Shown one piece after another: positions 4,463 to 63,514 of a stretch of DNA of 64,000 bases. This DNA comes from Amphiscolops sp. MND2022 (Eukaryota). The notes under the pieces were generated by a model, which saw only the letters and a list, made by a program, of their open reading frames with translations, did not search any database and was not told where the DNA came from. Made by a program: the position numbers and the translations under genes. The stretch lies in NCBI GenBank assembly GCA_964187785.1, contig OZ076409.1, positions 64,110,001 to 64,174,000 on the forward strand, written 5' to 3'. The stretch's first letter is position 1, and every line of letters begins with the position of its first letter.

Positions 4463-4469
4463 CGCTAAT

Positions 4470-19204: not shown

Positions 19205-19949
19205 CTGAATAAAATTAGAATATTTCCGTGTTAACCCCAGTGGTCCACTCATGGCGACCGTGAATTACTTATTGACCACCGATGGGGATGTGATGGTAAT
19301 TCCAGTGACCACTGATAGGTTGCCAGAAAAGACAAGAGCTGAAAAGACAAAATGGTCCCCCTCTTCAGTTTTTTTCGACCTTGACACTTTCCCCCGGTTT
19401 CCCCTCATTTTTTAAAGAGGTTCCTTTTGAATGCTTTAAGTTTCCAACCTCGTAAGAACGAATCCGAAGGTTCCCCGTTCTGATCGAATTAGCATTGTTG
19501 GACTGTTTCGAAATTTTGCAACAGTCTTTCGCCGATGTTCCGAGCGTCGTTACCCAATTGAAATTGTTTAATTGCTTCAACTTTCAATTTTGATTGGCGC
19601 GTAAAGTAAGTTTCCCGGCGCAGAGAGAACCTAGATACTGTCCCAGTTTGGAGCAGATTTTTGGGACGTTTGCCGCATGATTTCAGGGCTCTATAGTTTG
19701 TGCAGCTTGTCTAGAATCCAATGGTGGTATGTTCTGTGCCATAAACATTTTAAATGAAATATTTGCTTTTTCATATATAGTTTTGTATTTAGAAAACCAC
19801 AATACCAATCCTAATGCATTCAAATCCTTTATATAGATTTTTAAAACTTTTTGAACCTGATGTTTTTAAAAACAATTATAAAAACAATTTCTGCTAGCAG
19901 GCAGTTCGTTTAGCAAGTAATCAAGTGTCAAGAAAACAGTTTAGAAATC

Positions 19950-20247
19950 TAAACATATCCATGACTTCGGCTGATTTAGGGTAGATAATTAGTATGAAAT
20001 TTGTCAAAAAGTTGTAGGTAATTCGGTAAAAACCTAGCAACAACGATAAGCCTCGATTTCGCTCTAAAATAGCTCAATTTAATTTTCAGATTTTTGGTCA
20101 CAGAAATTACCGCAGAAACAATGTAAACCAGATGAAATTCTAAGAAATTTTAATCCTGATGTTTTTTTGAAGTTTTTCATCCGGCTTCGAGAAATCCAAG
20201 TCTAAAATTGGCCCGCGGACGATTTCTGAACCACACTACTTACTGTA
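19950..20247 (-). mobile_element. MITE remnant related to 1793-2409
   Basis: Reverse-complement similarity around TAAACCAGATGAAATTCTAAGAAA and terminal TACTGTA. Confidence 0.45.
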
Positions 20248-23479: not shown

Positions 23480-23682
23480 GTAACTAAAAAAGCTTATAAC
23501 TTGACGACCAAATAACTATGGAAAATTTTATCACGTAAAAAGTTTACCCTAATGGTTGAAAGCAAGTTTAATCGTTGCTCAAGTTGAAGTCCGCCAAGAC
23601 ATGGTATTTTGCATAATTGTGGTTTTGTATTTCAAACTCATCTAATAAGTTAATTAGTAATGGCATTTTTGTTTGTTTTCAG

Positions 23683-24156
23683 ATAAAATTCTGATGATCG
23701 AAAACAAAGGTATCGAGTCGTGGTCTCAAGACCAGTTTTTGCACGCCGCGTCCTCGAAGTATACTGCAGTTCCTGTTTCCAACTTGAAGCCTGAACGATG
23801 CAATTCTTCTACCAACAACGCAGCAAACGGCAACAACACTCTTATACACTTACAGTCTTCCGATTTATGCGACCAATATAGGTATGGTACTAACCAGAAC
23901 GCGCTGTTGCACCATTCAAACGTTCCCTTGGATGCATCAACGGGGACGACAGCGACGGGTGACAACCTTGGACAGCATAAGATGACGACATCAGCTCGTG
24001 GCAGCAGCAGCGGTGGAAACTCTTGCTCGAATGGCATGCGAGTAACCTCCAACAACTCTTCAGGGGGCCATTCTCTAACTTCCATGGTCAGCCTATTGGA
24101 AGAACAATGGAATCAAGGATCCCAGTTTTTGATGCTCCAAGGGAAGAAATACAACA
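23683..24156 (+). CDS. MLLT10: AF10-family protein, exon with the octapeptide motif (OM)
   Basis: TTTCAG / GTAAGT, phase 1-1; SLLEEQWNQGSQFLMLQG matches AF10 QLLERQWSEGQQFLLEQG. Confidence 0.92.
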
Positions 24157-24632
24157 GTAAGTTATCTTGTGTCCTCATTCATTCCAGAGCTCCCGTTGTC
24201 GATCTCATTCTGCTGCCTGATTGATTTTCACCAGCGGAGGAAAAATCTTGTAGTATTCACACTGTAGATGGTTTCAAAGAAATTAAAGAATTGCAGTCAT
24301 ACTGAGAATGTATCGAAAAATGAATCTAAACTGATGATAAGACTAGAACGTTAAACGGTTCTTTTTAATCTCTTTAATCTCTAGTATAACTATGAAAGAA
24401 AAATGATACGGTTTTTGCTAGAATTTTGTTGGAATTCACGTGGCTGTCATGCAAATGTTTTCGAAATTTCATTTGTCCATGGTTGTTGATTGATATATTA
24501 CAGTTATGGGATTATCGTATAATATAAGCGTGTTTCTCATAAGGTTTCAGTTTATCGTTTGAAATTTTTACGGCTTCAATTGTCTGTTTAATTTTTCTAG
24601 GTAAAAGAAAAATACGTAATTGTTCATTTCAG

Positions 24633-25291
24633 TTCCTTCGTTGCTGTCCAGTTTGTACGAGTTGCAAATGGAGAATCGACAACTAGAGAGTGAACTGGCC
24701 GAAGTGACTTCTCGGAGGAAACAACTGCAGATGATGAACCAGCACCTCTCGATACCTTTGTCCCAAACTTCTGCCGCCGCCGTGGCCACCGGGGGTCATG
24801 GGCACAATGCTGCTGTCGCAGCCTCAACAAGCGCATCTTCTGGGGCTGTACACGTCACTGGCAACCCTCAAAGCCACGTTGCTGCTAATGCTGCCGCCAC
24901 CAGCATCGTATGTCCTACCGGGTCCATCGCCGTGGCAAGTGCTCCTAACTCGATGAGTGCCGGTGGCGCCGCGGCTTCGGCTCTTGCTATACACGCTCCT
25001 CACACAAATACTGTGAACGCTGGAACAAGCACAAACAACAACATTGACAGCATATCTATCGCAGACACGCCCATCCCAACTTCCAACACGGCGGCCATTG
25101 ATGGTATGCACCCAGGAACCGTGGGCGCACCTGCACTGTCCCAGAACTCTCAAGTTCTCGGGAGGTCCAAAATGGGCGGTGCTGGCGGACGAGGATCTGC
25201 GTCATTGACCAGTTCCTCTATGAACCCAACCACTTCTTCGGATGACTTGATACCCTCTAGTTTCCTGTTGGGAGCCAAAAATGTGAATGAG
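24633..25291 (+). CDS. MLLT10: AF10-family protein, leucine-zipper exon (DOT1L-binding OM-LZ)
   Basis: TTTCAG / GTGAGT; LLSSLYELQMENRQLESELAEVTSRRKQLQMMNQHLS matches AF10 MLKSLHQLQVENRRLEEQIKNLTAKKERLQLLNAQLS. Confidence 0.92.
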
Positions 25292-25620
25292 GTGAGTCAA
25301 ATTTATATGTTTAATGTGGCAAGGTTCTGATGATCTGGGAGGTGAGTTTCTCATCGTGCTCTCGGATGTAATTGTTTGACTTTGAATAGTCTGACCATAG
25401 TAATTCAGTACGCTCATGGCCTTTGTTTTGTTCCATGTCAATGGCATTAATTGAAATTCGTTGTCGGTCATCTTTTTTAGTATTTAAAAAAGTTGCTCAA
25501 TTAATATATGAATTCTGCTATTTTCAATACTTTGAATTTTGCAAAATACCTTGAAATTTTATTTTATTGTTGGAAAGTGGTTACTTCAGAGTTTGAGGTG
25601 AAGTGTTATTTATTCAATAG

Positions 25621-26209
25621 CAGGATACATCTCAGGCAGTAACAGCCATAGCTGCTGGCCTTATTCCTTATGACTGTCACAGTACCCCAACTCTGCGCCT
25701 GAATAACGGAGGCTCTAATGGCGGTGCATCTTCCCATAACCCTAACTCGTCCAACAGAAGGACTCCCATGACACCTTTACAGTCTCCAATCTCCACTAAT
25801 CCCTCTTCGATGTCAGCAGTGGCACCCTCTCTATGTATAAGTCCCAAAGACAATCAGAGTCTCAGCATCTCGTCAACAGGAGGAGGTGTGACACCCAACA
25901 GTGGGGTGACTGCTGGGTCACTGGGAGTGACGACTCCTAGCTCAGTTGTGACTGCCTCCCTAGTGCAGCAGCAGCAACAGCAGATGGTGGCCGCTCAGCA
26001 ACTGGCCGCAGCTGCACAAGTGTCTTACCTGGACCCATCGACGTACTCACTGCTGGCGCAGCAACAACTCGTCGCTTACCATCGAGCCCTGAGCATCTCG
26101 CAAAACACGTCGCCCCAAAACACCGCTCAGCCGGCCACCTCGCCCGTTGTTGATCAACTCACGCAAAGCTACAGACTAGCAGCCGCAGCTGCCGTGTCAG
26201 GATTAGATT
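25621..26209 (+). CDS. MLLT10: AF10-family protein, Gln/Ala-rich C-terminal exon
   Basis: TAG|CAG tandem acceptor (phase 0); open frame with polyQ; GTAAGC donor (phase 1). Confidence 0.85.
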
Positions 26210-26440
26210 GTAAGCATTTTACAAGCTTTCCTCCTTTTGATATCATGCAATGTGAATTGATGTATCTGAAAAATAAAGCTTAGTAGCTTGTCATCTCGAA
26301 AAAGTTTTCGCTGCTCAGTTTGTTATGCTGCTCCATTGTTTTAATTTTAATCGTTTCGGAAATAAACGTAAAATGGTCAGTTTTGCATGGAAATATTGGA
26401 CTGCTCAATAATGAGAGTCACATTTTTTGATTGGTTTCAG

Positions 26441-29349: not shown

Positions 29350-32300
29350 AGTCGGCGTTTTTATACAATAAAAAAGCCCGACTATTAGTCACTTTTTCAA
29401 GACAGACTCGAATGTGGCGAAAATTTTCATATCGTTCAACTAAACGAATATCTCGAAAACGCATCTAAGTTAATGCAAAGGGTCACCCATTCATTTTTAT
29501 TTTCCGCCCATATTTCATATGGGAAAGGAAAATATCGGGTTTTTTTTTTACAAAATTTGCCAAGAATTTATATCAAAGCTAAAAGGTTTCACCCATAGAA
29601 TTCAGCTCACATAAGTTTAGCTTCGTGGGATTTGTATTTGTGGAGATTTCCGGACTTTTTTAGTTGACCCCAAGGACCCCAGAATGACCCCAAATTAACT
29701 CAAAAATGACCCCAAAAGAGAATTTGCGTTTTTTACGTTTTAATGCAATTTTTGTCGAGTTTCCGATAAATGTCGTGGATTAGAATGTTGAAAAGATTCA
29801 CAAAGATAAGAACGCGTTGTCCAATAGTCGTTTATGGAGATAAATGCGGTTTTTTGGAAAGAAAAAGACCCAAAAAAGGACAAAGAAAACCAAAAATTTC
29901 CAGATTTTTAACGTTTTTAAGCAATTTTTGTCAAATTTTCGATAGAATTCGTGGACTAGATTGTTGAAAACGATCAACATGGTACACGTTTGTTGTCCAG
30001 TAGGCGTTTCCGAAGAGATAATGGCTGTTCTTTATTTGAAAAATGTCTCAAATTGACGCCGAAAATGACAAAAGTCCCTAAGTTTTCCATTTTTCAAAGT
30101 TTCTACGCTTTTTTCGTCAAATTTTGGAGACTTCGTGGATTGGAATGTTTTACGGGGTCAAAAAGGAAAACGTTGGTTGTCCAGTAACCATTTTTAAGAG
30201 TTTATTGCATTTTTCTAATTGAAAATGTCTCAAATTGACACTGAAATTGACAAAAAACACAAAATTTTCCAATTTTCAAAACAAAGTTTTATGCATTTTT
30301 TGTTAAAGTTTCACAGACTTCGTGGATTGGAATGTTTTAAAGGGTCAACAATGAAAAAATTGGTACGTCCCGTAGTCTTTAATGAAGAGATAATTACAAT
30401 GTTCTGCTTGAAAATGTCTCAAATTTACACCGAAAATGACAAAAGTCCCAAAAGTTTTCAATTTTCAAAGATTTCGTGCAATTTTCTAAATTTTTGACAG
30501 ACTTCGTCAATTGGAACGTTGAAAAGGGTCAACAAGGAAAATAAGCGTTGTCCAGTATGCTTAGAAAAGAGATAAATGCAGTTTTTCAATAGGAAATTGT
30601 CCGGAATCGACATCGAAAAAGACCAAATTTCGAAAAATTGTCAAATTCATTTTTTCCACTTTTTGTCAAAATAACGATAGACTTCGTGGACTACAGTGTC
30701 TAAACGCTTAAGGCATGGGCAAACTTGTTGTTTCGGTGAGCTTTCGTTACGAGACAAGTTCAATTCGTAAAAGAAAAGGGCCTCAAATTGACATGAGATG
30801 TCAAAATTTCGAAGTTTTTGTCGTTTTTGATTTAATTTCTGTAGATTTTTCGAAAGATTTGTTCTAAGTTCCCCAATCCACTCAACAACGAAAAAACGAG
30901 CTATGCAATTTTTTTCTTGAAGAGAAAATTACAGTGTTTTGCTTCACAAACACTTCAGAATGACTCCAAAGGAATCAAAAAATTTCAACTTTGTTTTTGT
31001 GCAACTTGTGTACTTTTTGAATCGTTTTGGTGTCAGAATGTCAGCAAACGTTCAACAAAGACTGAACTCATATTCAATTAGGCTTTCAGGGGAATATTTG
31101 CAGATTTCGATCGGAAAATGGCTGAAAAGTGACCGTAAAAAGTCGAAAGCTTGAAAATGTTTGTCGATTTCTGACATTTTCAGTGAATTTTTATTTGAGA
31201 TTGGAAAATTTTGGTAAACTAAAGGGTTCAAAAAGCTCGCGTTGATTAAACTAGGCCCGGAACACGGTTTTTAAGAATGCCTAGTTTATGGTCGGAAGTT
31301 TAGTCAAAATAGTACAATTATTGGAAAAATTGAAAATTTTCAAGTTTTTTCTTACATTTTCAGGCAGTTTTTTGTTGATTTTTTGACCTACTTCCTTGCA
31401 TAAAATGGTTTTAAACACTCAACACTAACTCTTCCGGGTATCTCCAGTAGGCATTTTTCAAGAGATAACTGCATGTTTTGTTGGAATTGGTCTCAAAAAC
31501 ACCCAAAAATTCATGAAACAACAAAAAAGCACGTTGTTTGACAAACTAATCCCATTTTTTGTTCAAGCCACGAAAGTTTTTAACGAAGAGAAATTCCAAT
31601 GACCTCAGCGTTTAAACAATAAGGTATTCAAAACGCAATTGTGGGAAAAAGAGGCATGAAGTTCATCGAGTTTACAGCAAGGATGTCAAAGTTTCGAACT
31701 TTTTTTATTTTCGACAACATAGTCCCAATTTTGGACACTTTCCTAAAATTTACTTCAATCAGAAATATCATAGGCTAAGGATTGAAACGTCTAGCTACCG
31801 GTAGTGTTCCGAAAAGACATCAGACAAGTTTATTCGCACAACTTTCAAATGCTTCACTTGAAAACGTAAATTTCAACCTCATTTGTCCAATTTTTGTCAT
31901 TCAAAAACCTCCAAGCAAATTCACTAGAAAGGGAGTACATCTTCCTAAGAAAGATGTTTCGTGCTAAATCGTGAGTTAGAATGGTGTAAACATTCAACAA
32001 CAGCTAAACTCGGTGTCCAGTAGGCTTATTTTTGAAGAGACATCTGTAGATTCATTTTCGAAAAGTTCCTCAAATTGACCCTAAACTTGTCAAATCTATT
32101 TGCAGTTTTTGACACTTCTGGTGAAACAATGTACAATAATAGAACAAACCGGGGTTGCTCAACTTCCCTAAATTTGAAACTGACCTAATTTCAAGCTTTT
32201 ACTATTTTCTCTTTTACCATTTATGGCGAAACGAGTTTCAGCTCGCGAAACTGTTTTTCTCAAGCCGAAATGTGCTATGAAAGCAAGGGGTACACTTTGA

Positions 32301-35808: not shown

Positions 35809-38800
35809 TGTCTACGTACCAGTTAGAGTAACTAGAATTGTTGATAAACAAACTCAAAAGACGATAATTTACATTTGATGCATTTATACAATTACATATA
35901 GTTCTATACAGTCGAGAACTAGAGATATCAATTTTCACAATATTCTTTTCTCTTAGCAACTAGATTAGTAGAATAGAACATGGTGCAGTCAGCCAATTTT
36001 TAAACAATTGAAACGAACTTCTTACTACCAAACACAGAAAGGCAGAAAAAAACATAGTCCCAAGCCTCGAAGCAAGAGCCACAGATGGAAATCCGGTATT
36101 TACACCGAGACAATGGCTTGAGAGATTCCGGCAGTTCTGCAAACGGGAAGCCAAATTAGACATTGCACTGTTACTGAAAGGAAAAAAAATCACAGCAACC
36201 GAATGGACCGGAAAAGGACAAGCAATTCAAGAAGACTTCTTATGGGGAGAGGGACCGGAAGCTTTTTAACGAATAACTAGGGCCGAATATGAAACGGAAC
36301 CCGATAGTATAAAAGTGAAAGAACTAATCCGGTTGTTCACCGAATTCTACATGCGGAAGAAAACGCTTACCAAAAACCGCGGAGATTTCGTCTGGGCAAA
36401 ACACACCGAAGAAGAAACGCCAGAAGAATTTTGGAGACGGTAAATTGAAATTGAAAAAGAGTGTAATTTCAATACAATTTCGGCTGAAGAATTGCTGATA
36501 TCAAAGTATATGACCGCAAACACCGATAAAACATTACGGGATAAAATAATGGAAAAAACACTGGAACTAAAGAAGAAAATTGAATTGATTAGAGAGAATA
36601 CATATAAGAAAAACAAAAAAACACAATACCGGAAGCTTTGATATCAACAAAAGAAAAACACATAGTGAAGGAGGAACCAATTCAAAGAATGGAACCATTC
36701 GGAATAAGACCGAGAAACAAAAATTTCGGAAACCCAGCATACAGATTCTGTACCGCGCCAAATTGGACACCAATGCATCAATGTCCCGCATTAGACGTCA
36801 ACTGTAACAAATGCGGTATGAAAAGACACTATGCAGAAGCGTGCAGACAGCAGACAAACAACAACGGAACTGTGAAAAGACCAACCGAAAAGAAAACGAA
36901 CCAATCGGACGAACCATCAAGCGAGTCCTAAGAAAGCATTCTTTACAAAAAAGAAATAAAGAAAATCGACGAGACATATAAACATTTCACCACAACGCTA
37001 AAGATCAATGGAGTAACGAAAGAATTCATAATAGATAACGGATCACCAATATCATTAATGCCACTGGATGAAAGAATCATGAAATCAACCGACATACAGA
37101 AAAAAACAAACCGATACCAAGACGTGAACAAAAAAATTATATTCCGGGGAAAATTCCGGTAAATGTCGAATATGAAAACAACAAACAAAAAGTGGAATTT
37201 TTGATAACCGAAAGAACAGACATGACACCACTACTCGGGATGGACTGGATGAAGAACTTCAAACTAACAATCGGCAAAATACAATTGGCCGATAACAACC
37301 AATCAGAAAGCGAGTAAGTATTCAAAAAGTTTCCGGACCTATTTGAAAACAACGAAACGATAAAAGATACCGAGAAAAACATCCAATTAAAACCGGGCAC
37401 TATCCAGTAAAACAAAAAGCGAGACCGGTACCACTACATCTACAAGAAGATGTCGGCCGTGAATTAGAAAAACTAATTAAATCCGGACACCTAGAAAAAG
37501 TAAAAGACGTAGATGAAGACTGTTTCGTATCACCAGTAGTCATAACAGTAAAATGTGACAAATCGGTGAAAATAGCAATGGACTCGACGCAATAGAATGA
37601 TAGCTGTATTAAAATGAGACCCCACATGCCAAATATGGAAGATTTGTTAATCCAAATTTTGGTAGAAATTACCCGTGACCGAACAGTACAACTATTCATA
37701 TCAAAAATAGATCTCGACTACGCTTACGGACAAATGAAGTTATCCGAAGAAACAAGCCGACAATACGTATTCGCAGTAACCGCGGGAAAATTTAGTGGAT
37801 ACTACCGATATAAAAAATGGTTTTACGGACGTGCCGATTTACACACCATCTTCCAAGAGCAAACTGACCGAACACTCGGATACTGCACATCGGCATGGTT
37901 GGACAACATAATTGTAGTAACACGGTGAAATAAACAAGACCACGAGTAGAAAATAATCGACGTCTTGAAAAAATTTGAAAAAGCCGGTTATCAAGCAAGC
38001 AAAAAGAAATCTGAATTCTTAATGAACCAAATAAAATGGTTGGGACACGAGATTTGTGAAAACAGAATTAAACCGAACGAAGAAAAAGTAGAAGCCATAT
38101 TAAAACTAACGCCACCGGAAAATACGAAAAAATTGAAATCATTTCTCGAGGCAATACATTATATGGCAAGATTCTTACCAAAACTTTCGGAACAAACAGA
38201 CCGATTGCAAAAAATATTGAAAAAAATGAACCATGGATATGGGGAGAAGAACAACAGAAAGACTTTGTAGAAAATAAGACAAATGTTAACCGAGGGTCCA
38301 TGCTTGGCACACTACGCAAAAGACAAAGATAATATAGTAATAACGGACGGACGCCAGCACTACCGAACTGGGAATAACGTTATGGCAAAAACAGGATGAC
38401 GGCAATACAAAACCGATAGCATTCGGAAGTAGATATTTGATCAATACCAAAAAGAAATATTCTATAGGTGAAATTTATCGATTAGCAGTAGTATGGACAC
38501 TCGAAAAATTCCGATTTTATTTATACGGAAAAAAAGTTTACTTGTATACCCATCACCAAGCATTAGAACCCTTGAAAAAAAGAAATCGGAGCAATAAACA
38601 GTATAGCGCTAGATTAACGAGATGTTTAGACCGCTTAACTCACTTTGATATATCAATACAACATAATGCAGGCGGCAATCTGAAATTCACCGATTACCGT
38701 AGAAGAAATCCGGTAGAGTGAGCCACATCGGAACAAATACGACGATGAATACGTAATCAACATACTTTTCGAACAGGCAAAATTGAAAATAAAATACGGA

Positions 38801-40314
38801 CCATTATTCGCCGACCAATCAAAATGCGACAGAGCGAAAACCGAAACAAAGAATGGTACATCCGAAGAACAAAATGAGAAACGAGGAAACCAATCACATA
38901 CGAAAAGAACATTCGAGAACAAACACGGCGTGAACAAAAATCAACAAAACGAAAAGCTACATCCGCTGGACTTTGTTTGGTCGGGATGTGGCGAATACTG
39001 CCCGTTGTGTAAAATGGTCAAACCGGCGTCGCAAACCGCCGGGCAGTCTGATATTAGCACGCTAAAGTCAAGTTGCTCACCGAAAGAAATTTTATGTTCA
39101 AATCAGGTTTCAAAACTTCAAAAATTAAAAACGGAACTTCCCGAAGTGGACCGCGAAAACTTCTATCATTGGAGCGCCAGAGACAAAAATATGAAAATTA
39201 TCCGCAGACGAAACAACACACAGGCTAATAGAGCAGAGAAACGAGTTATCCCCCTAGAAAATTGCGACGCCGGTTTGACCATTTTACACAACGGGCAGTA
39301 TTCGCCACATCCCGACCAAACAAAAGAAGTGGAGCAGAAATAGCCGACATTGATGAAGAGATTATGCGGAGAGTGAACCGATTGGGCTGCGGATATCAGC
39401 CAATAATAGAAGAACAAAACGAACCGGAAGAAGTACGGGAAGAAGGCGAACAGGAAATAGAGGCTACAGAGACGGAAGAAGATAGTGTGAATATGCGCGG
39501 CGACAATTTGCCAATAGTAGACATCAGCAATTACAACACGGAAAGGAAGCGCATTATATCCAGATTAACCGCATTCGGGGAAAACTGACAAACAACAAAA
39601 AGATAACGGGAGACCAGATTAAGAGCGCCGAATTCGAGTTCATGATGGACCTAAAAACGCTTATTGCCAAAACTGCAATCGATCCGGAGCTAACCCGCGT
39701 CAGGAATAGTATGCTTAGAGAAAACCGGGAGACAATCTCGGATGGCTACCGGACTGTCTTTGACAAGCTGTCCATCAGATGGGGATTGGTCTTTGTTGAT
39801 GACCAAATCGTAGTGCCAATAGACCTAAGACGACGACTTGTGAACATCCTACACTTCGGTCGATCCGGCATAACGAGCATAACGAAAATGACATCAGAAG
39901 CAAAGATATTCTTGTGGCCCGAAATTAAGCAGGATATCGACAACAATGTGGAAGACTGTACAGCCTGCTTTGCATCAGGTAAAACCTTAAATATCAATTA
40001 CCGAAAAAATACTACGGAAAGCTAGAAAAACTAACCGAACCCGGCCAAGAAATACAAACTGACTTTTTCGGAAAACTACACAACAAACACATACACGGAG
40101 AAGAACAAATTCTAATAGCGGTAGATAGATTTAGTAATTGACCGACTGTAAAAATTTGTAAAACGGCGGAGACCAAGGAGGTCATAAATTTTCTATCGAG
40201 TAACTTTAATTTGTATGGAATACCCGAAAAAAATATCCGATACGGGGGAGCGATCGTTTCCAAAGTGTATCAAAAATTTTGCAAAAACCGAAATATTGAA
40301 ATTGAATATTGCAC
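35809..40314 (+). mobile_element. Decayed, 3'-truncated Ty3/Gypsy element of the WLDD family
   Basis: LTR end GAATAGAACA at 35980 followed by PBS TGGTGCAGTCAG; frameshifted gag (CNKCGMKRH..C), FIIDNGS, IDLDYAYGQM, AWLDNII, RNase H, integrase zinc finger and start of core; no 3' LTR; LTR start is approximate. Confidence 0.88.
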
Positions 40315-41048
40315 AATTGAATCGAATTGCAAAATTCGAGTCGTTTTGTGCTGAATTGGAGTTATCAGGCCTGCCAATGAATTGAAATGATTATAAAACC
40401 TGTTTATGACATTTTTTGGAAAGTGGCTTTGAGAAGAAAATTGACTCTGGGTACACATCCAAGTTTCAGGTTCATCTGCAAAGTGTCTTTCGGATGCGTT
40501 CTTCTAGGGAACTCAAAGTATCACAGTGCCACTACGCCTTGTGCTCCGTTTCATTTAAGCTTTTTTTGCTACGGGTACGATGAAATGCAACTATATAGCG
40601 ACTACTGAAAAACGTTTTTTTTTCAAATATCATTTGAATTATGCTATGTTTAAATACTGCACGCTGACATGCAATCATATTACGAATATGGGTCAAGAAT
40701 TATACCACTTACGAAATGAAATTAAAGGGTTGGTGGTTTCTGGACTTGTTTCCTCTCACCCACACATTTAGCGAAATTTCGTGACACATTGGAAAATGAT
40801 GATAAATTAGTTCCTGATTGAGTGAATTTATGTGATGTCATCAAAGAACAGTGAATAATTGTTTTTAGAAATCAGTGAAAGTCATTAGAATTTTTAAAAT
40901 GCAACTGACGATGTTAAAATCTAGTTTTTGAAACGTAAGTTGTGTGGGTGGGGTGGGTTAGCCAGTGTAAACTCAAGTTTTCTAAAGCATTTGTCCAGGG
41001 TTGAAGTGTTCAGGATGACGTGATCGATGACAAAAGCTAATTGTCGTC

Positions 41049-50097: not shown

Positions 50098-50304
50098 TGT
50101 AGAATAGAGCATGGTAAAGGTCACTATGTCATGTAAGATTACATAATTTCATACCATACTGTCTATGACCATATTACATAATGTACCTGCTAACATAGTA
50201 CTGGAGATTACTGTATATCTTAACGACACAAGAAATTTGGATACAGTTACAATACAGTATTACATTCCCTGACTCCTTTTGAATATAATCGATAGAATAC
50301 AACA
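50098..50304 (+). repeat. 5' LTR
   Basis: TGTAGAATAGAG...GAATACAACA, identical to 55895-56101. Confidence 0.96.
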
Positions 50305-50316
50305 TGGCGCAGTCAG
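50305..50316 (+). other. Primer-binding site, tRNA-Ser type
   Basis: TGGCGCAGTCAG directly after the LTR, complementary to a tRNA ending CTGACTGCG-CCA as in invertebrate tRNA-Ser; variants at 35981 and 59087. Confidence 0.75.
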
Positions 50317-50317
50317 A

Positions 50318-53300
50318 ATGAGTCAAAAGAACGAGACGAACCCGATAGAAGTATCAAGCAGAAACTCCTCAAGCGAAGAACCCGGAGAAAAGAAGGGGAG
50401 ATCAACAACACACCAAAAAATAACGTTACCCATATTTGAGAAGAAAACCATCCAAGAGGCCAAACTATGGTGGCGACGATTTATACAATATGTCAAAATG
50501 ACACAGAAGATCGATTTAAACAGAATGACAACGGACAAGGAGATTATAGAAGAATACAGAGAAGAACTGGAGATAAAAATAAAGGATATTTTTATCTGGG
50601 CCCTAGGAGAAGAAGCGGTCACCGAAATGACAAAAACAGTGAGAGACAATGACCCAAACAAAATGAATATAAATCAACTATATTCATTATTTAGACTCCA
50701 CTTCATCCCAGAAAGAAACAAGTTCCATAGTCGAGCCGATTTTTTCGGAATAGTACGGGAACCCAATGAAACAGCCGAAGATGTTTGGACCAGAATTCTC
50801 CAGACAGAGAAAAATTGTGAATTTGACAACGTTACACCAGCCGAGCTTATTGCATCGAAGTTCCTGTCACTAATTGGAAGGTCAACGGGAGACTATGAAC
50901 TAAAGAAAAAGATACGGAAAAGCAACATGACAATTGAAACCATTACCGATCTTATACATGAGTACATGTATGACCGATTAAATGATTCAAACAACTCAAA
51001 CGATGGAAGAAATGTAAAACACGTACAGGAAAGGCCCCAAAAGAGAAAGTGGTCTGAGAAATCCAGTTACGAAAGGAACAAGAGAAGACCGGAATATCAG
51101 AAACAAAAATACAAAGATAACCGGTGTGGACAGTGCGGAGCACCTAACTGGTCAAGACAACACGTTTGCCCTGCCAGGACGGTAGAATGCAGAAACTGTA
51201 AAAAGAAGGGACACTATGAAAAAATGTGTAGACTCCCAAAAAGAATACAATACGTGGATAAAATATCATCCTCAGCTGAAGAAGACAACTGGGATTACAA
51301 CAAAATACAAAGTATCAACAACAAAAAGAAAAAAGAAGATTTCTTCCACGCAACGCTACTGGTCAACGACGTACCAATAAAATTCATAATAGACAGTGGA
51401 TCACCAGTCACACTAATACCACAAAAGCTTTTCAAGGGCACTTCAGAGGTGACGAAGCTAAACACAAACTACAAAGATGTAAACGACAACAAAATTGAAT
51501 TCCGGGGACAAACATTAGCAACGGTGAAAACAAACAATACGACGCTACAATTACCACTGCTAATTACTAAAGCAAACATAACACCGTTAATGGGACTAGA
51601 CTGGATGAACCGGCTAGGTATAACTCTTAACACAACAACGGAAGATGTCAAAATACACAACATCAAACTGGACGAAACCCAAAAGAAGATCCTAAAATTA
51701 AAAAACGAATTCAAGGACCTATTTTATAACAACACGGAAATAAAGAATTTATCAGTAAAGATAAATCTGAAAGCAGACGCAAAAATAATACAACAGAAAG
51801 GCAGACCAGTACCGATCCATTTGCAAGAACAAGTAGCCAATGAAATCAAACGATTAATAAAGAACGGCTATCTTGAAAGAGCAACTGAGATAACCGAAAA
51901 TTGCTTTGTGAGCCCCGCGGTAGTTACAGTAAAGAAAGACAAATCGATAAAAATTGCCTTAGACTCAAGAAAACTGAACGAAGCAACAATAAAAAGAAAA
52001 GCACAAATGCCAAACATGGAAGAGCTGATATCGAGAATATCACGAAAAATATCCGAAGAAAAAGAAGGCGAAATATGGCTAACAAAACTAGATTTTGATT
52101 ACGCATACGGACAAATCAAACTGGACGATGAAACAAAAAATCTCTGCATATTCACCATTACAGGAGGAGAATTCACGGGATATTACCGTTTCCTCAAAGG
52201 ATTCTACGGACTGGCAGATATACCAACCATCTTCCAGGAACGGATAGACAAAACACTAGAATTCAAACACCCCGCTTGGTTGGACGATATCATAATTGTA
52301 ACCAAAGGAACAATAGATAAACACGAAGCGGAGGTAAAAGAGACAATGGAAAACCTAGAAAAAGCCGGGTATAGACTACACCCAAACAAATGCGAATTCT
52401 TCAAACAGGAGACAGAATGGATTGGACACAAAATAGACCAAAACGGGATCAGACCTTTACAAGATAAATTGGAAGCCATCACAAAGATAGAAATACCAAA
52501 GAACGAAAAAGAACTAAAATCATTCCTGGGCGCAATCCAATACCTGGCAAAATACATAGAAAATTTGTCAGCACAAACAGATATCCTCAGAAAATTACTG
52601 AAAAAACAAAATGAATGGAATTGGACACAAGAACATACGGAGGCATTCAACAACTTAAAAAAGTTAATAACACAACTGCCATGCTTAGCCCACTACAACA
52701 CCGATAACGAAAACATCCTAACAACGGACGCCAGTACAAAAGGATTGGGGGCAACACTATGGCAGAAACAAAAAGACGGAAATTTAAAGCCGATCGGATT
52801 TGCAAGTAGATTTTTATCGGACACGGAAAAAAAGTACGCAATAAACGAACTAGAATTGCTAGCCGTAGTGTGGGGATTGGAACATTTTCGTCTATACATA
52901 TACGGAAAGCCAATCGAATTACTTACCGATCACCAAGCATTGGAGCCGCTAATTAAAAGGAATAGATCAAATAAAACTTATAGTGCAAGATTGACAAGAT
53001 GGCTGGATAGACTGGCACACTTTGATATCAACATAAAGCACGTCGCTGGAAAACACTTGACGTTGACGGATTATTTAAGTAGAAACCCTGTAGCAAAGCC
53101 GGTACCAATTGAGAATTACGATGAAGAATACGTAATCAATTGCATAATACCTCTACTGGAGTTCATTAACACGCATGGCAGCATCTCAGATGAAAAGAAA
53201 GCGACGATGCAAACGGAGAATAACACAGCGAAGCAAAACAACAACCAATCACAGACAAGAAGCGTGAACAAACAACCACTCACCATAAATCAGATAAACG

Positions 53301-55612
53301 AACTCAAGCCATTCCAAACTTTGCAAACGAGTGAACCAATTGATTCACAGCACAAATTCGACCACCGTTCAATCAACATGGATATTAAAACAATTGAAAG
53401 CATTGAAAAAGATGATCCATCAGAAGATACACTTCGACTTACCAGCAGATGGAGAGAAATTACCAAACCGGGCGACTATCGATTTACTCAAGGACAGTGG
53501 AGAAAATATGCACCCCCGAGAACATTGAGAGCCGAATTAAAAAGAATTGAAGTAGACCTATGGCAAAGAAGAAATAAACTAATCTGGCAGAAAATGGAGA
53601 AGAATAGTAAAGAAACACCGGAAGAAGTAGCACGGAAAAAGGAGTTCCACAGAGTAATTGAGAAGATCAGAAATCTGCCTAAACGAGACGAAGCAGGCCC
53701 GAGCAGCAGCAACACACAGCAACAACAACCACAGTATGAAGAAGAGAATATAAACGCAGACCAGAGAGATGAAACGGAAACAATGTCTTCCGACTCAGAT
53801 CAAACAATAGCCGTACCGGCTATAAACTTCAAACGATATCTGGGCGCAACCAGCGTGAGATACATTCAAATGGGAACCGCAAGCAAAGTACAATACGAAG
53901 ACAAGTGGGACTTAGAAGAAACAGTACGACAAGCAGAACAAAAATTCTCAACGGATCTGCGAACAATCGCAGACGAAACCACCAACGATGAAAAGCTACT
54001 AAAGACACTGGTTTGCCTTGAGAGAAGAAATTTCGAACAAATCCCCGAAGAGTACAAACAGTACAAAAACAACCTCTCGACACGATTTGGAGTCGTCTTT
54101 TACGATGACAAAATAGTGATACCAAAGCCACTTAGACAAACCGTCATTATGTTATTGCACAAAGGACACCCGGCGATCAACAAAATGAGCCACGCTGCCC
54201 GCCCATTCTGGTGGCCTAAACTGACAAAGGACATTCAAACAAAATGCAATGAATGCATCCCTTGCAAGATGTCAGGTAAGAGTATTAAACCACAATTACC
54301 AATGACTGAAATTAACTACTTACCACCGGCCGAAAAACCAAATCAGGAAATCCAATTGGACTTCATCGGACCAATAAGATTTAAGCACCGGAGATTTTAT
54401 ATTCTCATATCAATTGACCGATATAGTAGATGGCCGGCCGCATGCATATGCGAAGCTCCTAATAGCAAAACAGCAAAAAATTTCTTGGAACAATACATTG
54501 TACTAAACGGGATACCGCAGACAATAAGAACGGATAAAGGAACCGCCTTTACCGGAAGGGAATTTAGACAAACATGCAAAAATTTAAATATAAAACTAAT
54601 ATATGGCACGCCATATATTCATACAGCGACGGGATTAGTCGAAAGAGGAATAAAAACCTTAAAGGACTTGATGCGAACAAATTTACAAGATAAGTGCAAT
54701 TTGAACGAGGCACTATACCAAGCACTAATGGTGATGAGAATGACCGTCCACTCAAAAACAAAAGAATCACCATTTGAAAGACACTATGGCAGAAAGCCAA
54801 GAACGGAACTTACAAACTATCTAAACTTACCAACGGGTAATAATGAATATATTTCAGCCCAACCGGAGACCCTCCAAGTGTACTCCTTTAACAACGGAAA
54901 AGGAGGCTACGACCAACTAATCATGAAGACGCCCAGAAAACTCAAATGCGACGTGAGTAATAACTTTCCATACAAATTTTTGGAAAAAAGACAAACAAAA
55001 AACAAATTCGAGAGCGAATATCAAACAAAACCACAAACAGCGGTAGCTGGAACAAAACATACCATAACAACCGATACAAATAAAGTAATACACCGAAAAT
55101 TGGCAAGCAAACCCCTACCAAATTCATTTCAGAATCCACTCTCTCGCCGCGGGGAGAACAGGAGAGGAATAGATGGGCGATTCATACAGATGTCCTTACC
55201 ATCACTGGAGACGGAAGATACGGACGAAGAAGAAACCCAATCAGAGGGGGAAAAAGAAAGCACACCGGTAGCAGAAACATCGACAGAACAGATGGAAGAA
55301 GAGTTCGAATTCACGCCACCAACACCGATCAGAAGAGGTGAACCACAGTCACCAGGAGCAGGGAACTTGAAGCTTCATGTCGAAAACATGAATGAACAAC
55401 AACTAGAACAAGCTCTCGAAACAATCAACGAGAACCCAACAACCACCACAATCATCGACAATAACGGTAACGAAAATTACATAAAAACAGAAATAAATGA
55501 AATTACAAATACAAGCGAAAGAAGTAGTAATAATAACCAACCAATTAGAAGATCTTCAAGACTAAGAGCAAATAATCCAATAGTAAGATTTGGAAACCCG
55601 TTAACGCATTAA
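50318..55612 (+). CDS. Gag-Pol polyprotein (Gag with two zinc knuckles, protease, RT, RNase H, extra domain, integrase)
   Basis: CGQC..H.C and CRNCKKKGHYEKMC; IDSGS; LDFDYAYGQ / FYGL / WLDD; TDAS, ELELLA, TDH; HKGH...CIPC; LDF, TDKG, VER; first in-frame ATG after the PBS at 50318 (1764 aa). Confidence 0.95.
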   Translation: MSQKNETNPIEVSSRNSSSEEPGEKKGRSTTHQKITLPIFEKKTIQEAKLWWRRFIQYVKMTQKIDLNRMTTDKEIIEEYREELEIKIKDIFIWALGEEAVTEMTKTVRDNDPNKMNINQLYSLFRLHFIPERNKFHSRADFFGIVREPNETAEDVWTRILQTEKNCEFDNVTPAELIASKFLSLIGRSTGDYELKKKIRKSNMTIETITDLIHEYMYDRLNDSNNSNDGRNVKHVQERPQKRKWSEKSSYERNKRRPEYQKQKYKDNRCGQCGAPNWSRQHVCPARTVECRNCKKKGHYEKMCRLPKRIQYVDKISSSAEEDNWDYNKIQSINNKKKKEDFFHATLLVNDVPIKFIIDSGSPVTLIPQKLFKGTSEVTKLNTNYKDVNDNKIEFRGQTLATVKTNNTTLQLPLLITKANITPLMGLDWMNRLGITLNTTTEDVKIHNIKLDETQKKILKLKNEFKDLFYNNTEIKNLSVKINLKADAKIIQQKGRPVPIHLQEQVANEIKRLIKNGYLERATEITENCFVSPAVVTVKKDKSIKIALDSRKLNEATIKRKAQMPNMEELISRISRKISEEKEGEIWLTKLDFDYAYGQIKLDDETKNLCIFTITGGEFTGYYRFLKGFYGLADIPTIFQERIDKTLEFKHPAWLDDIIIVTKGTIDKHEAEVKETMENLEKAGYRLHPNKCEFFKQETEWIGHKIDQNGIRPLQDKLEAITKIEIPKNEKELKSFLGAIQYLAKYIENLSAQTDILRKLLKKQNEWNWTQEHTEAFNNLKKLITQLPCLAHYNTDNENILTTDASTKGLGATLWQKQKDGNLKPIGFASRFLSDTEKKYAINELELLAVVWGLEHFRLYIYGKPIELLTDHQALEPLIKRNRSNKTYSARLTRWLDRLAHFDINIKHVAGKHLTLTDYLSRNPVAKPVPIENYDEEYVINCIIPLLEFINTHGSISDEKKATMQTENNTAKQNNNQSQTRSVNKQPLTINQINELKPFQTLQTSEPIDSQHKFDHRSINMDIKTIESIEKDDPSEDTLRLTSRWREITKPGDYRFTQGQWRKYAPPRTLRAELKRIEVDLWQRRNKLIWQKMEKNSKETPEEVARKKEFHRVIEKIRNLPKRDEAGPSSSNTQQQQPQYEEENINADQRDETETMSSDSDQTIAVPAINFKRYLGATSVRYIQMGTASKVQYEDKWDLEETVRQAEQKFSTDLRTIADETTNDEKLLKTLVCLERRNFEQIPEEYKQYKNNLSTRFGVVFYDDKIVIPKPLRQTVIMLLHKGHPAINKMSHAARPFWWPKLTKDIQTKCNECIPCKMSGKSIKPQLPMTEINYLPPAEKPNQEIQLDFIGPIRFKHRRFYILISIDRYSRWPAACICEAPNSKTAKNFLEQYIVLNGIPQTIRTDKGTAFTGREFRQTCKNLNIKLIYGTPYIHTATGLVERGIKTLKDLMRTNLQDKCNLNEALYQALMVMRMTVHSKTKESPFERHYGRKPRTELTNYLNLPTGNNEYISAQPETLQVYSFNNGKGGYDQLIMKTPRKLKCDVSNNFPYKFLEKRQTKNKFESEYQTKPQTAVAGTKHTITTDTNKVIHRKLASKPLPNSFQNPLSRRGENRRGIDGRFIQMSLPSLETEDTDEEETQSEGEKESTPVAETSTEQMEEEFEFTPPTPIRRGEPQSPGAGNLKLHVENMNEQQLEQALETINENPTTTTIIDNNGNENYIKTEINEITNTSERSSNNNQPIRRSSRLRANNPIVRFGNPLTH

Positions 55613-55883
55613 CGTTTACAGGAAACACCGTTGACAAAATCAACGAGAAGCTCACCCAGTCACAGAGCGAATAAGAAAGGACCGGACGGAGAAGCAGAAC
55701 ACGCGAAGTCACACCCGGTGACAAACATAGCAGAAGAAGAGCGATGATCCAGAAGTATTACCTGGAACCTTATGTTCAACGATGAAAACTAAAACATTTT
55801 CATGTATCAATGTGTATGTGTGATAACTTTATTTTGTTATTAACCTTTGAGTTATTATTAACAGATTGTACAATCTGGCCCGT

Positions 55884-55894
55884 AAAGGGGGGAA
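55884..55894 (+). other. Polypurine tract
   Basis: AAAGGGGGGAA immediately before the 3' LTR. Confidence 0.9.
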
Positions 55895-56101
55895 TGTAGA
55901 ATAGAGCATGGTAAAGGTCACTATGTCATGTAAGATTACATAATTTCATACCATACTGTCTATGACCATATTACATAATGTACCTGCTAACATAGTACTG
56001 GAGATTACTGTATATCTTAACGACACAAGAAATTTGGATACAGTTACAATACAGTATTACATTCCCTGACTCCTTTTGAATATAATCGATAGAATACAAC
56101 A
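55895..56101 (+). repeat. 3' LTR
   Basis: Identical by eye to the 5' LTR. Confidence 0.96.
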
Positions 56102-58891: not shown

Positions 58892-61800
58892 TGTAGAGGA
58901 CTAGGACAATTTATATTAATTAGTTTGCTGTTATAGTTGTGCTATTTCATGTATACGATGGTCTCTTATTAAATACCTGCCCACATAGTGCAGATGATAC
59001 AGATGATCATAAAGAGTCAGAACAAGATAAAGTACAGTTGAGTTTCAGTGAAATGATCTCTTTTATCAATGAGCTAGAATGCAACATGGCACAGTCAGCA
59101 TACCCTCAAAGTTATATGTGACCACAATAGCATTCAACAGCCGACAAGGAAGAAAACTCAAGAGATGGGGATAATACGATGACGTCAGCGGGAACACGGC
59201 AATGTGGACAACTGCTACCAAACGATACAATTAACAGGACGGCAGACCGGACCTGCACCCAAACGCTTACCATTCCCACATTGGAGAAGCAAGACCAAGC
59301 CAATGCGAGTGAGTGGTGGAGAAAATTTGTACAGTAATCAAAATGACAAAGATATCGACCTGTCAACCATGACGAACAGCAACGAGATACTACCACAATA
59401 CCGTGATCAACTCGAAGCAGATATAAAAGAATTGTTCATCTGGGTAATTGGACAAAATCACGGAGATGACAGAAACAGTCAGGGAAAGAGAACCGAGTTC
59501 ACCATCTCTGTACAAACTATGCACGCTTTTTCTATTGCACTTCACTCAAGAAAAGAACATACACCACAGCAGAGCCGATTTGGTTCCATCTGAAACGAGA
59601 AGACGGCGAAACCGCAGCAAACGTGTGGAAACGACTACTAGAAGCAGAAAAGAACTGCGAATTCGAACCAATAACCGCAGCAGAACTTGTGGGATCAAAA
59701 TTCCTGTCTTTTATCGGCAAATTAACTGGTGATTACGACCTGAAGAAAAAGATTAGAAAACACGATATGTCGGTAGAAGGAATAACCGTTTCAAAACAGG
59801 AGTATATGTAATTAGGATACAATTCCTTGATTGTTTTTATTTCAAGTTTTATTCACCATTTTATCTACCATCTTCTTTACATTAAGTAATCGGACTGGAA
59901 GTAAAAATACAGATGAAATAAGATGCAAAACTAATACAGCAGAAGGGAAGACCCATACCGATTCACTCACAACAATCGGTGGAAAAAGAAAAAGAGAAAC
60001 AAACAAAACAAGGTCATATTGAGAAAGTCAATAACATTGAAGAAAATTGCTTTGTGAGTGCAGCCCCTATGACGGTAAAGAAAGAAAAGTCGATAAAATT
60101 TCAAGAATTTCGAGAAAAATAGCAGACGGTACTGCCGATGAAATATGGATTTTAACATTCGACTTGGACTAGGCATACGGACAATTACTACTGTCGAAGG
60201 AAATCAGAAACTCAGGCCTATTTGCCGTAACCGGGGGAACTTTACCGGTTACAACCGCTTCCTGAATGGGTTCTACGGTTTGACGGATATACCAACAATT
60301 TTCCAGGAAAAGATTTACCAGACTCTGGAAATTAATCACCCAGTATGGTTAGATGACATCATTTTAGTAACAATAGACTCAAAGGAGGAACACATGAAAG
60401 AATTATTCGATCTCCTAATCAAGCTTGAAAAGGCCGGATAAAGACTGAGCGAAACAAAATCCAAATTCTTACAAACATAAATTGAATGGATGGGCCACAA
60501 AATTAACCAGGCCGGAATCCGACCTTTACAGGACAAATTACTGGCAATAAAAGTATCGAAACAACCGATCAACGAAACAGGAATTGGAATTTTTCTTGGG
60601 GGCCATCCAATTATTGTCAAAATACATCGACAATCTTTCCGCCCAAACTGATAGTTTGAGACAGTTACTGAAGCAAAGCAACAAATGGATACTGTCGGTA
60701 GAGCATTTTTTTTGAAAATTGAAACAAAAAATAACGGAAATACCTTGTCTGGCACATTATAACTCCAATTATCTAAACGTGATACCAACAGACGCAAGCA
60801 CAAAAAGCTTAGGGGCGACCCTATGGCAAGTACAGCCTGACGGAATGTTAAAACTGATAGGCTTCGCGAGTCATTTTTTATCAGAAGAAAAGAAATACGT
60901 CATATATGAACTCGAACTACTGGGAGTAGTCTTGGGCTTAGAACACTTTCGTTTATACATGAACGGAACACCTATTAAACTTTTGACGGATCACCTGGCT
61001 TCAGAACTGCTGTTCAAAAGAAAACCGCTCCAACAAAACCTATAGCGCACGCTTAACACGGTGGTTAGACCGATTAGCACACTTCACGATTAACGTGATT
61101 TATATCGCCGGCAAACACTTAGCACTCACAGACTTCCTCAGTAGAAATCCGGTAGCACCACCACAAATTGATGACGAATACGACGAAGAATACGTGATCA
61201 ATAGCATTCTACCACACTACAACTTCATCTCAAAACACAGTTGCCTTAGGAACCACAACAACCAATCAGAAATCGGAACAGAGAAAAGTGGACGGAAAAC
61301 AAATAACAAATCGCGGAAAAACGACGCGCGTTAACAAACCGCCTTCACAGCGACAAACACACACGCATTGATTCAAACGAATTGAATACTTCTAAGTGCA
61401 TCAAAATCACAATGGAACCAGGAACCTTTCCAGGAACCAAAGATTTTACGTAACGAAAGGAAAGTCATAGCAGGTTCGGTCTCGTTTTCTTGGAGGACAG
61501 AATTATAGTCCCGAAGAACCTCTGAGCCACGGTAATCAGCTTGCTGCATAAAGGACATCCCATCATCAACAAGATGATTCTAGCAGCCCGGCACTTCAGG
61601 TGGCCAAAGATGGCCGAAGCAATGCAGCAGAAATGCGAAACAAGCATCCCCTGGAAGATGTCCGGTAAGAGCGTTAAACATAATATACCTAAAACACGGG
61701 AAAAAATTTACCACCGTTGATCAGTCCGAACGAAGAAATCTAATTGGATTCCCTCGGGCCAATCGCAGAAAACACCTGCCGATTTCACATACTGCTGTCC

Positions 61801-63514
61801 ATTGACCGGTTTAGTGGATAGCCGGCGGCGAGTTTCTGTCAATACACTGACGGAGAAACGGCGGTGAACTGTCTCGAACAGTATTTCCAGCTGGACGGTA
61901 TACCGGAAACAATTAGAACGGATAAGGCAGTCGCATTCACAAGACGCCTTTTTTGTGACTTGCTACATTAAATTAATTTCGGAACACCGTATATACATAC
62001 ACCCACGTGCCTGGTAGAACGAAGAGTTAGAACACTGAAGGAAGAAAGTCTCCTAACGAACACAAAAGCAGGCGAACGGTTCGGAAAAGCCTTAGATTTA
62101 TCTTTAGATGTAATGAGAAAAACACCCCATACAAGATTTAAAAATCGGCATTCGAATTTCATTACGGTCGGGAATCAAACACGGAAGTTAGTAATCTGCT
62201 AAACCTGGACATCTTGAAGGATCTAACAAAAAAAATCCATTTCAGCGAAACCTGGTTTTTTACAGGTATATTTGTTCATCGTAGTTGGCGTTGTTTCTGA
62301 GCAGCTACTGATGAAGTCAAAGAAAAACGATAACGGAGTTTGTAATTACACCTTCCTTTTCTTAGAAAAAACACCAGAAACCTAAATTCGAATGTGCCTA
62401 CTCTGATGAACTAAATATAGCTATTTCGGGAACGAAACATACTGTAACTACACCGAATGGTAGAACTATACATAGGGAATGTATTAGTAAACCAATTACT
62501 GATTGTGATCAAGACTGTAACAACAACAGAGGAACCGGACTGAGAGGACCAGACGGCCGGTTTACAAAATCACCATCAAAACAGAACAAGGTGTACGTAA
62601 TCGTATCGGACAACGAACCCGAGACATCCCACCAGAGAAAAGCAGTCCGACGGTACCGGAGCAAACAGACAGCACCACGGTCAAAAAGAGCACGTTTTGC
62701 CGAGGCAGACCGAAGCTAATAAGAGACCGGCTGAGGTTAAACTCCACCCAGAGCTCACCGGGCAAAGCGGACAACACCGGCCCGCTCACCATAACCATCG
62801 CCAACAAGACATACACGGAGGTCGACCGTGCCATCGATGACGCTAGGCAAGCAAATGAAAAGCTTTATATCAGAGACGACAACGGTAAGGTGTTTAAAAA
62901 TCTCACTTCTTTCCCTGACACGGGGAAGAGAATAGCTTTAAAAACTCCAAACTAGATCTGGCTAGCAACCTGAGCTTTAGTACTGAATTAGAAGCAGACA
63001 CTAAACATGAGGAAGAAAAAATAGTATGCAGATCACAACCGCCAACAAAAACTAATGCAATTGTTAGATATATTAACCCTATTTGTCATAATTTTATGAA
63101 ACACCGTAGAAAGGCTGAAATTGGGAATAACACTGGTCAGACGGACATGGAGACAAACAGCCCCAACTAACCCAAACAGCAGACAACAACTTGACGTCAC
63201 GGGCAGATGCCCACCGTGACAACCATAAAAGCAAGGATCGGTCGCACGTTCTCAAACCAATGGACCATTGAATGAGTCACAACCATACACAAACTACACA
63301 GAGCCCCATTGGTCGAACAACAGCCAATAGTGAGGGGGGAAGGCAGAGGACTCAGACAATTTATATTGTGCTATTTTATTTATACGATAGTCTTTTATTA
63401 AATACCTGCCCACATAGTGCAGATGATACATTGATCATAAAGAGTCAGAACGAAATAAAGTACTATTGAGTTTCAGTGAAATGATCTCTTTTATCAATGA
63501 GCTACAATACAACA
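58892..63514 (+). mobile_element. Decayed two-LTR Ty3/Gypsy element of the WLDD family, inserted into a reverse family A element
   Basis: LTRs 58892-59086 and 63342-63514 (about 15 substitutions, 22 bp of gaps); TSD GTATA/ATATA; PBS TGGCACAGTCAG; PPT GAGGGGGGAA; fragmented gag, VWLDDII, TDAST, integrase; the flanks rejoin as a family A repeat ending at about 63822. Confidence 0.92.

Follow-up and report, generated by a model that had tools for sequence, protein, structure and literature searches.

Simple retrotransposons with long terminal repeats (LTRs) are usually taken to make integrase from their polyprotein alone. Foamy viruses use an internal promoter for the accessory genes Tas and Bet. 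HIV obtains its regulator Rev from a multiply spliced mRNA (as cited in PMC3315495), and Cer1 of C. elegans, a Ty3/Gypsy element with a single open reading frame (ORF) whose genomic RNA keeps host-type splice sites, needs its CERV protein for the export of unspliced RNA, a role that has been shown (PMC10309623, PMC3315495). In this regard, we describe a single-ORF Ty3/Gypsy element that, like Cer1, keeps host-type splice sites in its genomic RNA, from Amphiscolops sp. MND2022 (assembly GCA_964187785.1, contig OZ076409.1, positions 64,110,001 to 64,174,000 of the forward strand; this whole stretch of 64,000 nt is called the window, and coordinates refer to it). The element occupies 50098-56101 and carries an insert of two conserved blocks between RNase H and integrase. 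We propose, at a probability of about 0.62, that it holds a second transcription unit whose fully spliced mRNA encodes a non-catalytic accessory protein.

As in Cer1, this mRNA would have several exons, share in-frame peptides with the polyprotein and encode a protein without outside homologues, the splicing in our case being read from genomic copies. CERV shares N-terminal exons with Gag and is trans-spliced, whereas the exons here are shared with integrase and the core is dropped; in addition, the likely start here is a promoter inside pol, judging by DNA signals, and the export role demonstrated for CERV is only presumed for our element (PMC10309623, PMC3315495). The Oikopleura elements Tor3b and Tor4b are likewise LTR elements with a second promoter, Penv, whose start in Tor3b lies within pol; the env mRNA made from Penv is unspliced and lies downstream of pol, whereas our element has no env and would use its putative promoter for a spliced, integrase-derived mRNA (PMC4402516). 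Errantiviruses and Tf1, like our element, have additional folded units in the stretch from RNase H to the integrase zinc finger, namely the mini and pseudo-RNase H bridge domains, but our insert lies upstream of the mini domain and is predicted to be mostly helical with one hairpin; the section on bridge domains in that source reports neither an internal start nor splicing for them (PMC13524379). In plant Ty1/Copia elements, conserved splicing of a single-ORF LTR element gives a subgenomic GAG RNA and shifts the product ratio; the intron there is centred on protease and yields Gag, whereas the three introns here lie in and after integrase (PMC5580714). Unlike Rev, Tas and Bet, which are separate ORFs near env, the product proposed here is integrase with its core spliced out. 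The accessible text of an Arabidopsis long-read study (10.1101/2024.04.02.587720) holds nothing on integrase transcripts, and our literature search, to which GyDB, Repbase, Dfam, supplements and most subscription papers were external, found neither a promoter ahead of integrase nor a spliced-out core in any element.

The introns were located through genomic copies that lack them, and they follow the zinc finger as below.

54276..54857, + strand: intron 1, 582 nt, GT-AG, phase 1-1, holding the whole integrase catalytic core (rve)
54858..54952, + strand: exon 2, 95 nt, in frame
54953..55132, + strand: intron 2, 180 nt, GT-AG, phase 0-0, 60 codons in frame
55133..55466, + strand: exon 3, acidic tail, with an RG.DG[RK][FY] motif at 55163-55183
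55467..55621, + strand: intron 3, 155 nt, GT-AG, containing the polyprotein stop codon
55622..55674, + strand: coding part of exon 4, a short new C-terminus and stop

Locus L086 is complete: it has its two LTRs and is flanked by a target duplication, and it differs by 51 mismatches in 5080 nt and by exactly three GT-AG deletions that equal introns 1-3. Insert-bearing copies were sorted into lineages A (that of the window element), B, C, D and E, and the homologous three introns are missing from L053 of lineage C (603, 165 and 125 nt) and from L200 of lineage D (609, 180 and 146 nt). Lineages with the same three introns are 60-64% identical in reverse transcriptase and RNase H (RT/RH). Since the same three GT-AG introns are missing exactly in copies of three lineages, the element RNA is spliced at these sites, and intron-less genomic copies can thus map transposon splicing without RNA data. 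Loss of intron 1 excises the rve core and keeps the frame. The conserved Met at 53378 precedes every intron, and no upstream deletion above 30 nt occurs in the aligned parts of L086, L200 and L053.

The splice sites were compared in representatives, 22 in number, defined by spacer identity below 70%. At donor 1, the Gly-Lys that follows the finger is coded GGT AAR, with the GT kept in 20 of 21 representatives, and GGT makes up 15% of Gly codon usage. A same-phase acceptor reading TTTCAG or TTTTAG follows 582-603 nt on in the 18 representatives where it was located; the actual acceptors read TTTCAG, TTTTAG or TTACAG. The donor is also conserved in lineage B and in a related insert-less clade, with a same-phase acceptor in B and in 5/10 insert-less frames. 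Following a junction-spanning search, 22 loci were inspected, among which 14 lacked at least one intron by a strict test, 5 more did so by junction context and 3 lacked none; the losses occurred in different combinations, and some pairs of these loci probably share ancestry. Among loci fetched irrespective of junctions, 2/85 assessable ones lacked intron 1 (5 more were not assessable). The junction-pattern search in lineage A gave three matches and one in the control, with one real junction.

Upstream of these introns, the spacer between RNase H and the insert holds a set of DNA signals.

53243..53251, + strand: CCAAT box AACCAATCA (NF-Y type)
53263..53272, + strand: second DNA motif CGTGAACAAA, whose reading frame differs between sequences
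53309..53314, + strand: initiator (Inr)-like CCATTC, with a putative internal transcript start near 53311
53378..53380, + strand: conserved internal ATG in RNNATGG context

In 21/22 representatives the Met has an RRCCAATSR box 110-230 nt to its 5' side, at a density of 9.1 vs 0.28 per kb; over 2000 runs of synonymous recoding, the box appeared in 4.7 of the 22 on average and never in more than 11. An Inr-like word follows 59-80 nt past the box in 20/22, compared with a background of 13% of other windows. CCAAT boxes are typically found 60-100 nt before start sites, and an Inr-like site at +59 to +80 from the box fits this usual -60/-100 place (PMC11802806). The second motif, written as CGYGAAY, occurs in 19/34 sequences and is absent from 15. 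The 120 nt before the Met contain a single ATG over the 22 representatives vs 28-37 expected; four lineage D copies have an ATG at -85. In an alignment of 74 unbroken frames, some from loci fetched twice, the column is Met in 74/74 and the next is Asp in 73. The initial annotation had claimed a strong initiation context at 53378, and indeed RNNATGG is found at this Met in 22/22 representatives vs 116/556 other Met codons (21%).

The insert-less clade, which serves as the strongest control for these signals, shares this layout. Thirty of its loci were picked by a motif 5' of the spacer, and the box lies downstream in 26; it is present in 10/10 unbroken frames, where it is read Pro-Ile, while the insert clade reads Gln-Ser. 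In 8/10 of these frames, the first ATG past the box is in frame and precedes the mini domain. Since the box is kept in two reading frames, it is no protein motif, and since the insert-less clade has the same layout, the promoter-like arrangement is older than the insert and is kept as DNA. Taken from these signals, an internal promoter and start codon are highly probable. In insert-less L170, L171, L184, L185, L190 and L196, a donor-like AGTAAG stands in the putative leader, ~40 nt before the internal ATG.

The bridge in which these signals sit is arranged as follows: a conserved 35-residue stretch past RNase H, the variable spacer, block 1, an acidic linker, block 2 and the mini domain.

53084..53188, + strand: conserved stretch after RNase H (EEYVIN...), ratio of nonsynonymous to synonymous differences per site (pN/pS) 0.16-0.26
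53189..53377, + strand: N/Q/T-rich spacer, candidate internal promoter and 5' leader
53378..53677, + strand: block 1, Arg-rich predicted domain, predicted helix-helix-hairpin-long helix-helix
53678..53812, + strand: acidic linker, predicted disordered (predicted local distance difference test, pLDDT, <50), length variable in the alignment
53813..53959, + strand: block 2 (VPAINF...FSTDL), conserved
53954..54275, + strand: mini domain and H2C2 zinc finger, to the end of the putative exon 1

As the initial annotation had counted, ~299 codons separate RNase H from integrase (53084-53980, 299 codons within the 1779-codon frame). The distance between the end of RNase H and the zinc finger's first His is 359 amino acids (aa) in the window element, 330-367 aa in whole proteins of lineages A-E and a median of 103 aa in more distant relatives (range 55-422, n=40 measurable). 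The bridge is therefore longer than the norm, as had been said, but the norm of a few dozen residues was understated, since a helix-plus-three-strand mini domain normally precedes the finger (PMC13524379). The ~60 aa ahead of the finger are an ordinary mini domain of this type, according to a predicted model and its Foldseek matches to Ty3 and prototype foamy virus integrase. Likewise, the conserved domain put at ~250 aa stood as a selected region with no known match, whereas its size did not: ~250 aa is the total excess, and the conserved part is ~195 aa (53378-53960), in which a disordered acidic linker joins block 1 (~100 aa) to block 2 (~50 aa). All three alignments of blocks to the diverged element near 39147 are real and run across frameshifts, and GAAGTGG (~39146) and ACAATGG (~61412) are homologous Met positions, intact relatives of the former element reading GAA ATG GAT. 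Long RNase H-integrase bridges (247-422 aa) without blocks 1 and 2 were also seen in P0296, P0299, P0302, P0306, P0381 and P0382.

To measure selection on the bridge, pN/pS was taken over sequence pairs within each lineage and pooled, with 6 sequences of lineage A, 5 of B and 10 of C; L152, whose zinc-finger anchor was misplaced, was left out of the bridge alignment and of pN/pS. This ratio was used because Jukes-Cantor-corrected dS was saturated in blocks 1 and 2. The values were 0.07-0.12 for RT/RH, 0.18-0.23 for block 1, 0.12-0.23 for block 2 and 0.24-0.49 for the linker. By this measure, blocks 1 and 2 are under purifying selection as protein, on which the earlier idea of a domain had been made to hinge. 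The spacer, at 0.63-0.93, is near-neutral as protein, and its pS is lower (0.45-0.55) than that of RT/RH (0.66-0.68); judged by these ratios, it is constrained at the DNA level and hardly as protein.

In the AlphaFold2 model from 30 sequences, insert residues 1-100 (pLDDT 78-94) start with two short helices, followed by a single beta-hairpin, then by a long helix and another helix; a similar model came from 12 sequences. Residues 106-173 had pLDDT <50, and block 2 was poorly modelled bar its last helix, which is continuous with the integrase mini domain. Searches with the insert found nothing above cut-off in Pfam, a best E of 0.4 in the PDB sequence search, only generic helical matches, none at E<=0.001, with Foldseek in PDB or BFVD, and nothing significant with VIA (top Z 6.8 for a designed helical protein, aligned over 60 residues with a root-mean-square deviation of 2.3). 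These fold searches bear on block 1 and barely cover block 2; a longer model returned integrase N-terminal matches only, and the ESM Atlas, which gave no usable match for two queries, bears on neither novelty nor absence. Block 1 is thus predicted to be a ~100-aa fold without known match, so that the uncharacterised domain of the initial annotation, and the AlphaFold and Foldseek check it had suggested, led to a predicted-folded, selected region. The candidate identities NUDIX_4 and Inp1 stayed far below the Pfam cut-offs. A duplicated mini domain was rejected at an hhalign probability of 0.7% (shallow profiles, Neff ~3), and so was an errantivirus pseudo-RNase H, which has a core of five beta-strands where the model has a single two-strand hairpin. 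Block 1 contains 7-18 Arg in 80 aa.

A search of 1.84 billion representatives with the insert gave 293 matches, and all 150 matches listed, which are short fragments, align at >=35% to lineage A or B bridges; the insert was seen only in the source genome and in ENA proteins resembling its lineages. In a quick tree built from 48 RT/RH rows, all 16 rows with the insert fall into one group (SH-aLRT 99), whose sister is a set of 11 rows without it (97), and the two clades are joined at SH-aLRT 100 on a long stem of their own. Since the insert-bearing rows form a single group, the insert was probably gained once, as far as this tree can tell. The RT active site reads WLDD in 16/16 insert-bearing rows and Y/F-I/L-DD in the 11 insert-less rows.

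Based on these signals, we propose that the CCAAT/Inr promoter within pol would start an internal transcript at ~53311, that translation would begin at the ATG at 53378, and that the three downstream introns would be removed from this mRNA. When read from 53378 through all three junctions, L086 yields 459 aa and L200 yields 494 aa. This 459-aa product would be an accessory protein that is non-catalytic and has a lineage-specific domain at its N-terminus. In order, it would consist of block 1, the acidic linker, block 2, the mini domain, the H2C2 finger, a 32-aa C-terminal region, RG.DG[RK][FY], the acidic tail and a new end. The same residues also stay within the polyprotein. Pfam recognizes only the finger in the spliced product. 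The RG.DG[RK][FY] motif is present in exon 3 of 14/22 representatives, some frames ending early. The DNA-binding motif of NF-YA consists of its A2 helix plus GXGGRF (PMC11802806); the spliced product has no NF-YA Pfam match at E<=10. In lineage D (L200-L205), a CxxC...C..H cluster in exon 3 overlaps a GKF motif, where lineage A has RGIDGRF.

Since unspliced RNA must keep its introns to make integrase and to be copied whole, it needs a way past splicing and retention. Among the roles considered, the likeliest for the accessory protein would be to help unspliced RNA to escape splicing or nuclear retention, and we propose a regulator because a fully spliced mRNA for an Arg-rich protein is the HIV and Cer1 solution; taken on its own, a Rev/CERV-like role is a tentative suggestion by analogy. 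We hold with similar reserve the broader idea that an entire clade of animal Ty3/Gypsy elements is built as two genes, in which the LTR would give genomic RNA and the pol CCAAT/Inr promoter an integrase transcript, splicing would switch between active integrase and a core-less regulator, and one branch would have added an Arg-rich N-terminal domain of new fold, making an integrase-derived analogue of Rev and Tas. If the proposal is true, an internal promoter before integrase combined with introns that delete the core in frame would open a way of making an accessory protein that is new, and complex-retrovirus-style control would have a second case in Ty3/Gypsy after Cer1. The proposal is directly testable, as the start, the ATG and all six splice sites are placed to the base, and a small predicted fold without match is on offer.

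Several observations weigh against the proposed internal unit. The representatives are related and their counts overstate independence, and the Inr pattern and its window were chosen after the sequences had been viewed. Exceptional ATGs occur at -34 (L156), -97 (L154), -122 (L160) and, in frame, at -15 (L071), and insert-less copies lack the G at +4. The exon-4 peptide is unconserved between lineages A and D, and block 1 of lineages A and B has only 7-12 Arg with acidic residues equally many. No spliced copy was found in lineage B, where the junction pattern gave one match, which was not an element, and one in the control, and where the loci fetched irrespective of junctions included none either; the insert-less clade gave 0 junction-pattern matches. 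The spliced copies examined are mostly full-length with gag and RT present, and therefore what they record is splicing of LTR-started RNA or recombination, which is no proof of an internal transcript. A template-switch test of L086 against 12 close copies found no haplotype breakpoint near the putative start. These copies bear on a rival reading in which the internal promoter mainly gives an unspliced mRNA that encodes active integrase, extended at its N-terminus by the insert for targeting or nuclear import, while splicing of LTR-started RNA would give Gag-PR-RT-RH without integrase or tune the integrase dose. It suits this reading that triple-spliced full-length copies keep an open frame of 1494-1522 codons from gag on, that block 2 continues into the mini-domain helix and that the insert-less clade has box and Met straight before the integrase mini domain. 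However, splicing should be the default for a short transcript that has three good splice sites, and introns 2 and 3 and the new C-terminus are unneeded merely to drop integrase, so we regard it as rather unlikely.

The spliced product could also be a repressor that keeps the zinc finger, lacks the core, poisons integrase complexes and limits copy number. The integrase zinc finger is a multimerisation domain, and the Ty1 p22 and P-element 66-kDa proteins act as repressors in their systems. The evidence from architecture is the same as for the accessory regulator, including the exact, in-frame removal of the core; however, the families are very abundant and young with many open frames, and a repressor has no obvious need for an added, selected N-terminal domain, which makes this role unlikely in our view. 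Dispensing with a second transcript altogether would turn the Met into a protease site in the polyprotein, the insert into an integrase extension and the introns into cryptic host splicing of A-rich RNA. Although the frame is open through the spacer and intron 1 is missing in only 2/85 unselected copies, such an account leaves unexplained the CCAAT box in two frames, the ATG depletion, the -3 purine and the same three in-frame introns across lineages 60-64% identical in RT/RH, and it has perhaps one chance in ten. The short mRNA might instead arise by spliced-leader trans-splicing, for which the SL1 trans-splicing of the Cer1 spliced mRNA is a precedent (PMC3315495), or by cis-splicing that joins the LTR to an acceptor immediately ahead of the Met. 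For the latter, the initial annotation had pointed to splicing into CACAG at 53350, but CACAG is present in 1/12 close copies, the window's own only, and acceptor-like words occur within the last 130 nt in only 2/34 sequences, whereas the actual acceptors read TTTCAG, TTTTAG or TTACAG; we consider this route very improbable. The separately translated product from 53378 that had been suggested in combination with splicing remains likely, by its promoter-like signals, ATG context and downstream introns, while its entry via the CACAG acceptor is given up.

As a whole, the element is a young insertion with one ORF of 1779 codons, its domain order (gag, protease, RT, RNase H, H2C2 finger, rve core) is that of Ty3/Gypsy, and the hallmarks of TG...CA LTRs, target duplication, primer-binding site and polypurine tract are all present.

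50098..50304, + strand: 5' LTR (TG...CA), 207 nt, identical to the 3' LTR
flanking the element on both sides: target duplication ACAAC, 5 bp
50305..50316, + strand: primer-binding site TGGCGCAGTCAG
50318..55612, + strand: single gag-PR-RT-RH-IN ORF, with a WLDD reverse-transcriptase motif
55884..55894, + strand: polypurine tract, from its sequence
55895..56101, + strand: 3' LTR, identical to the 5' LTR

The TGGCGCAGTCA part of the primer-binding site is common to lineages A, B and C, and the window contains no tRNA gene matching this site. The nearest named matches to the element are 'K02A2.6-like' proteins at 30-36% identity; a double Cys-His knuckle is a feature linked to the Mag clade of Ty3/Gypsy. 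The 1.07-Gb host genome is very rich in copies, with 2395-4602 first-look candidates per protein query (block 1 or insert, several lineages), of which 150 were scored per query. TACCTGC recurs in the otherwise dissimilar LTRs of lineages A, B and D (window 50185-50191; L063, L064, L067, L068, L200) and is possibly a factor-binding site. In lineage B, a facing ATTGG and CCAAT pair stands just 5' of the 3' LTR, before the polypurine tract (window ~63305-63330; L067, L068, L069).

Two decayed relatives lie in the window at ~35950-40330 and ~58900-63500. The decayed lineage-C element contains a 63-nt perfect inverted repeat (38972-39034 / 39262-39324), whose upstream arm is inverted block-1 coding sequence sitting in the spacer. 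In the third element, which belongs to lineage B, most of the insert and mini domain is gone right after the Met (61412-61470), with little more than a fragment of block 1 left. Elsewhere, exons in 14745-26283 belong to a host gene that shows a PHD-like Cys/His pattern and has long stretches of low complexity; an AF10-like identity is a guess. Repeat arrays with a unit of ~176-188 nt occur at 17170-18134 and 29715-30597, and several inverted repeats resembling miniature inverted-repeat transposable elements are spread across 1000-35400.

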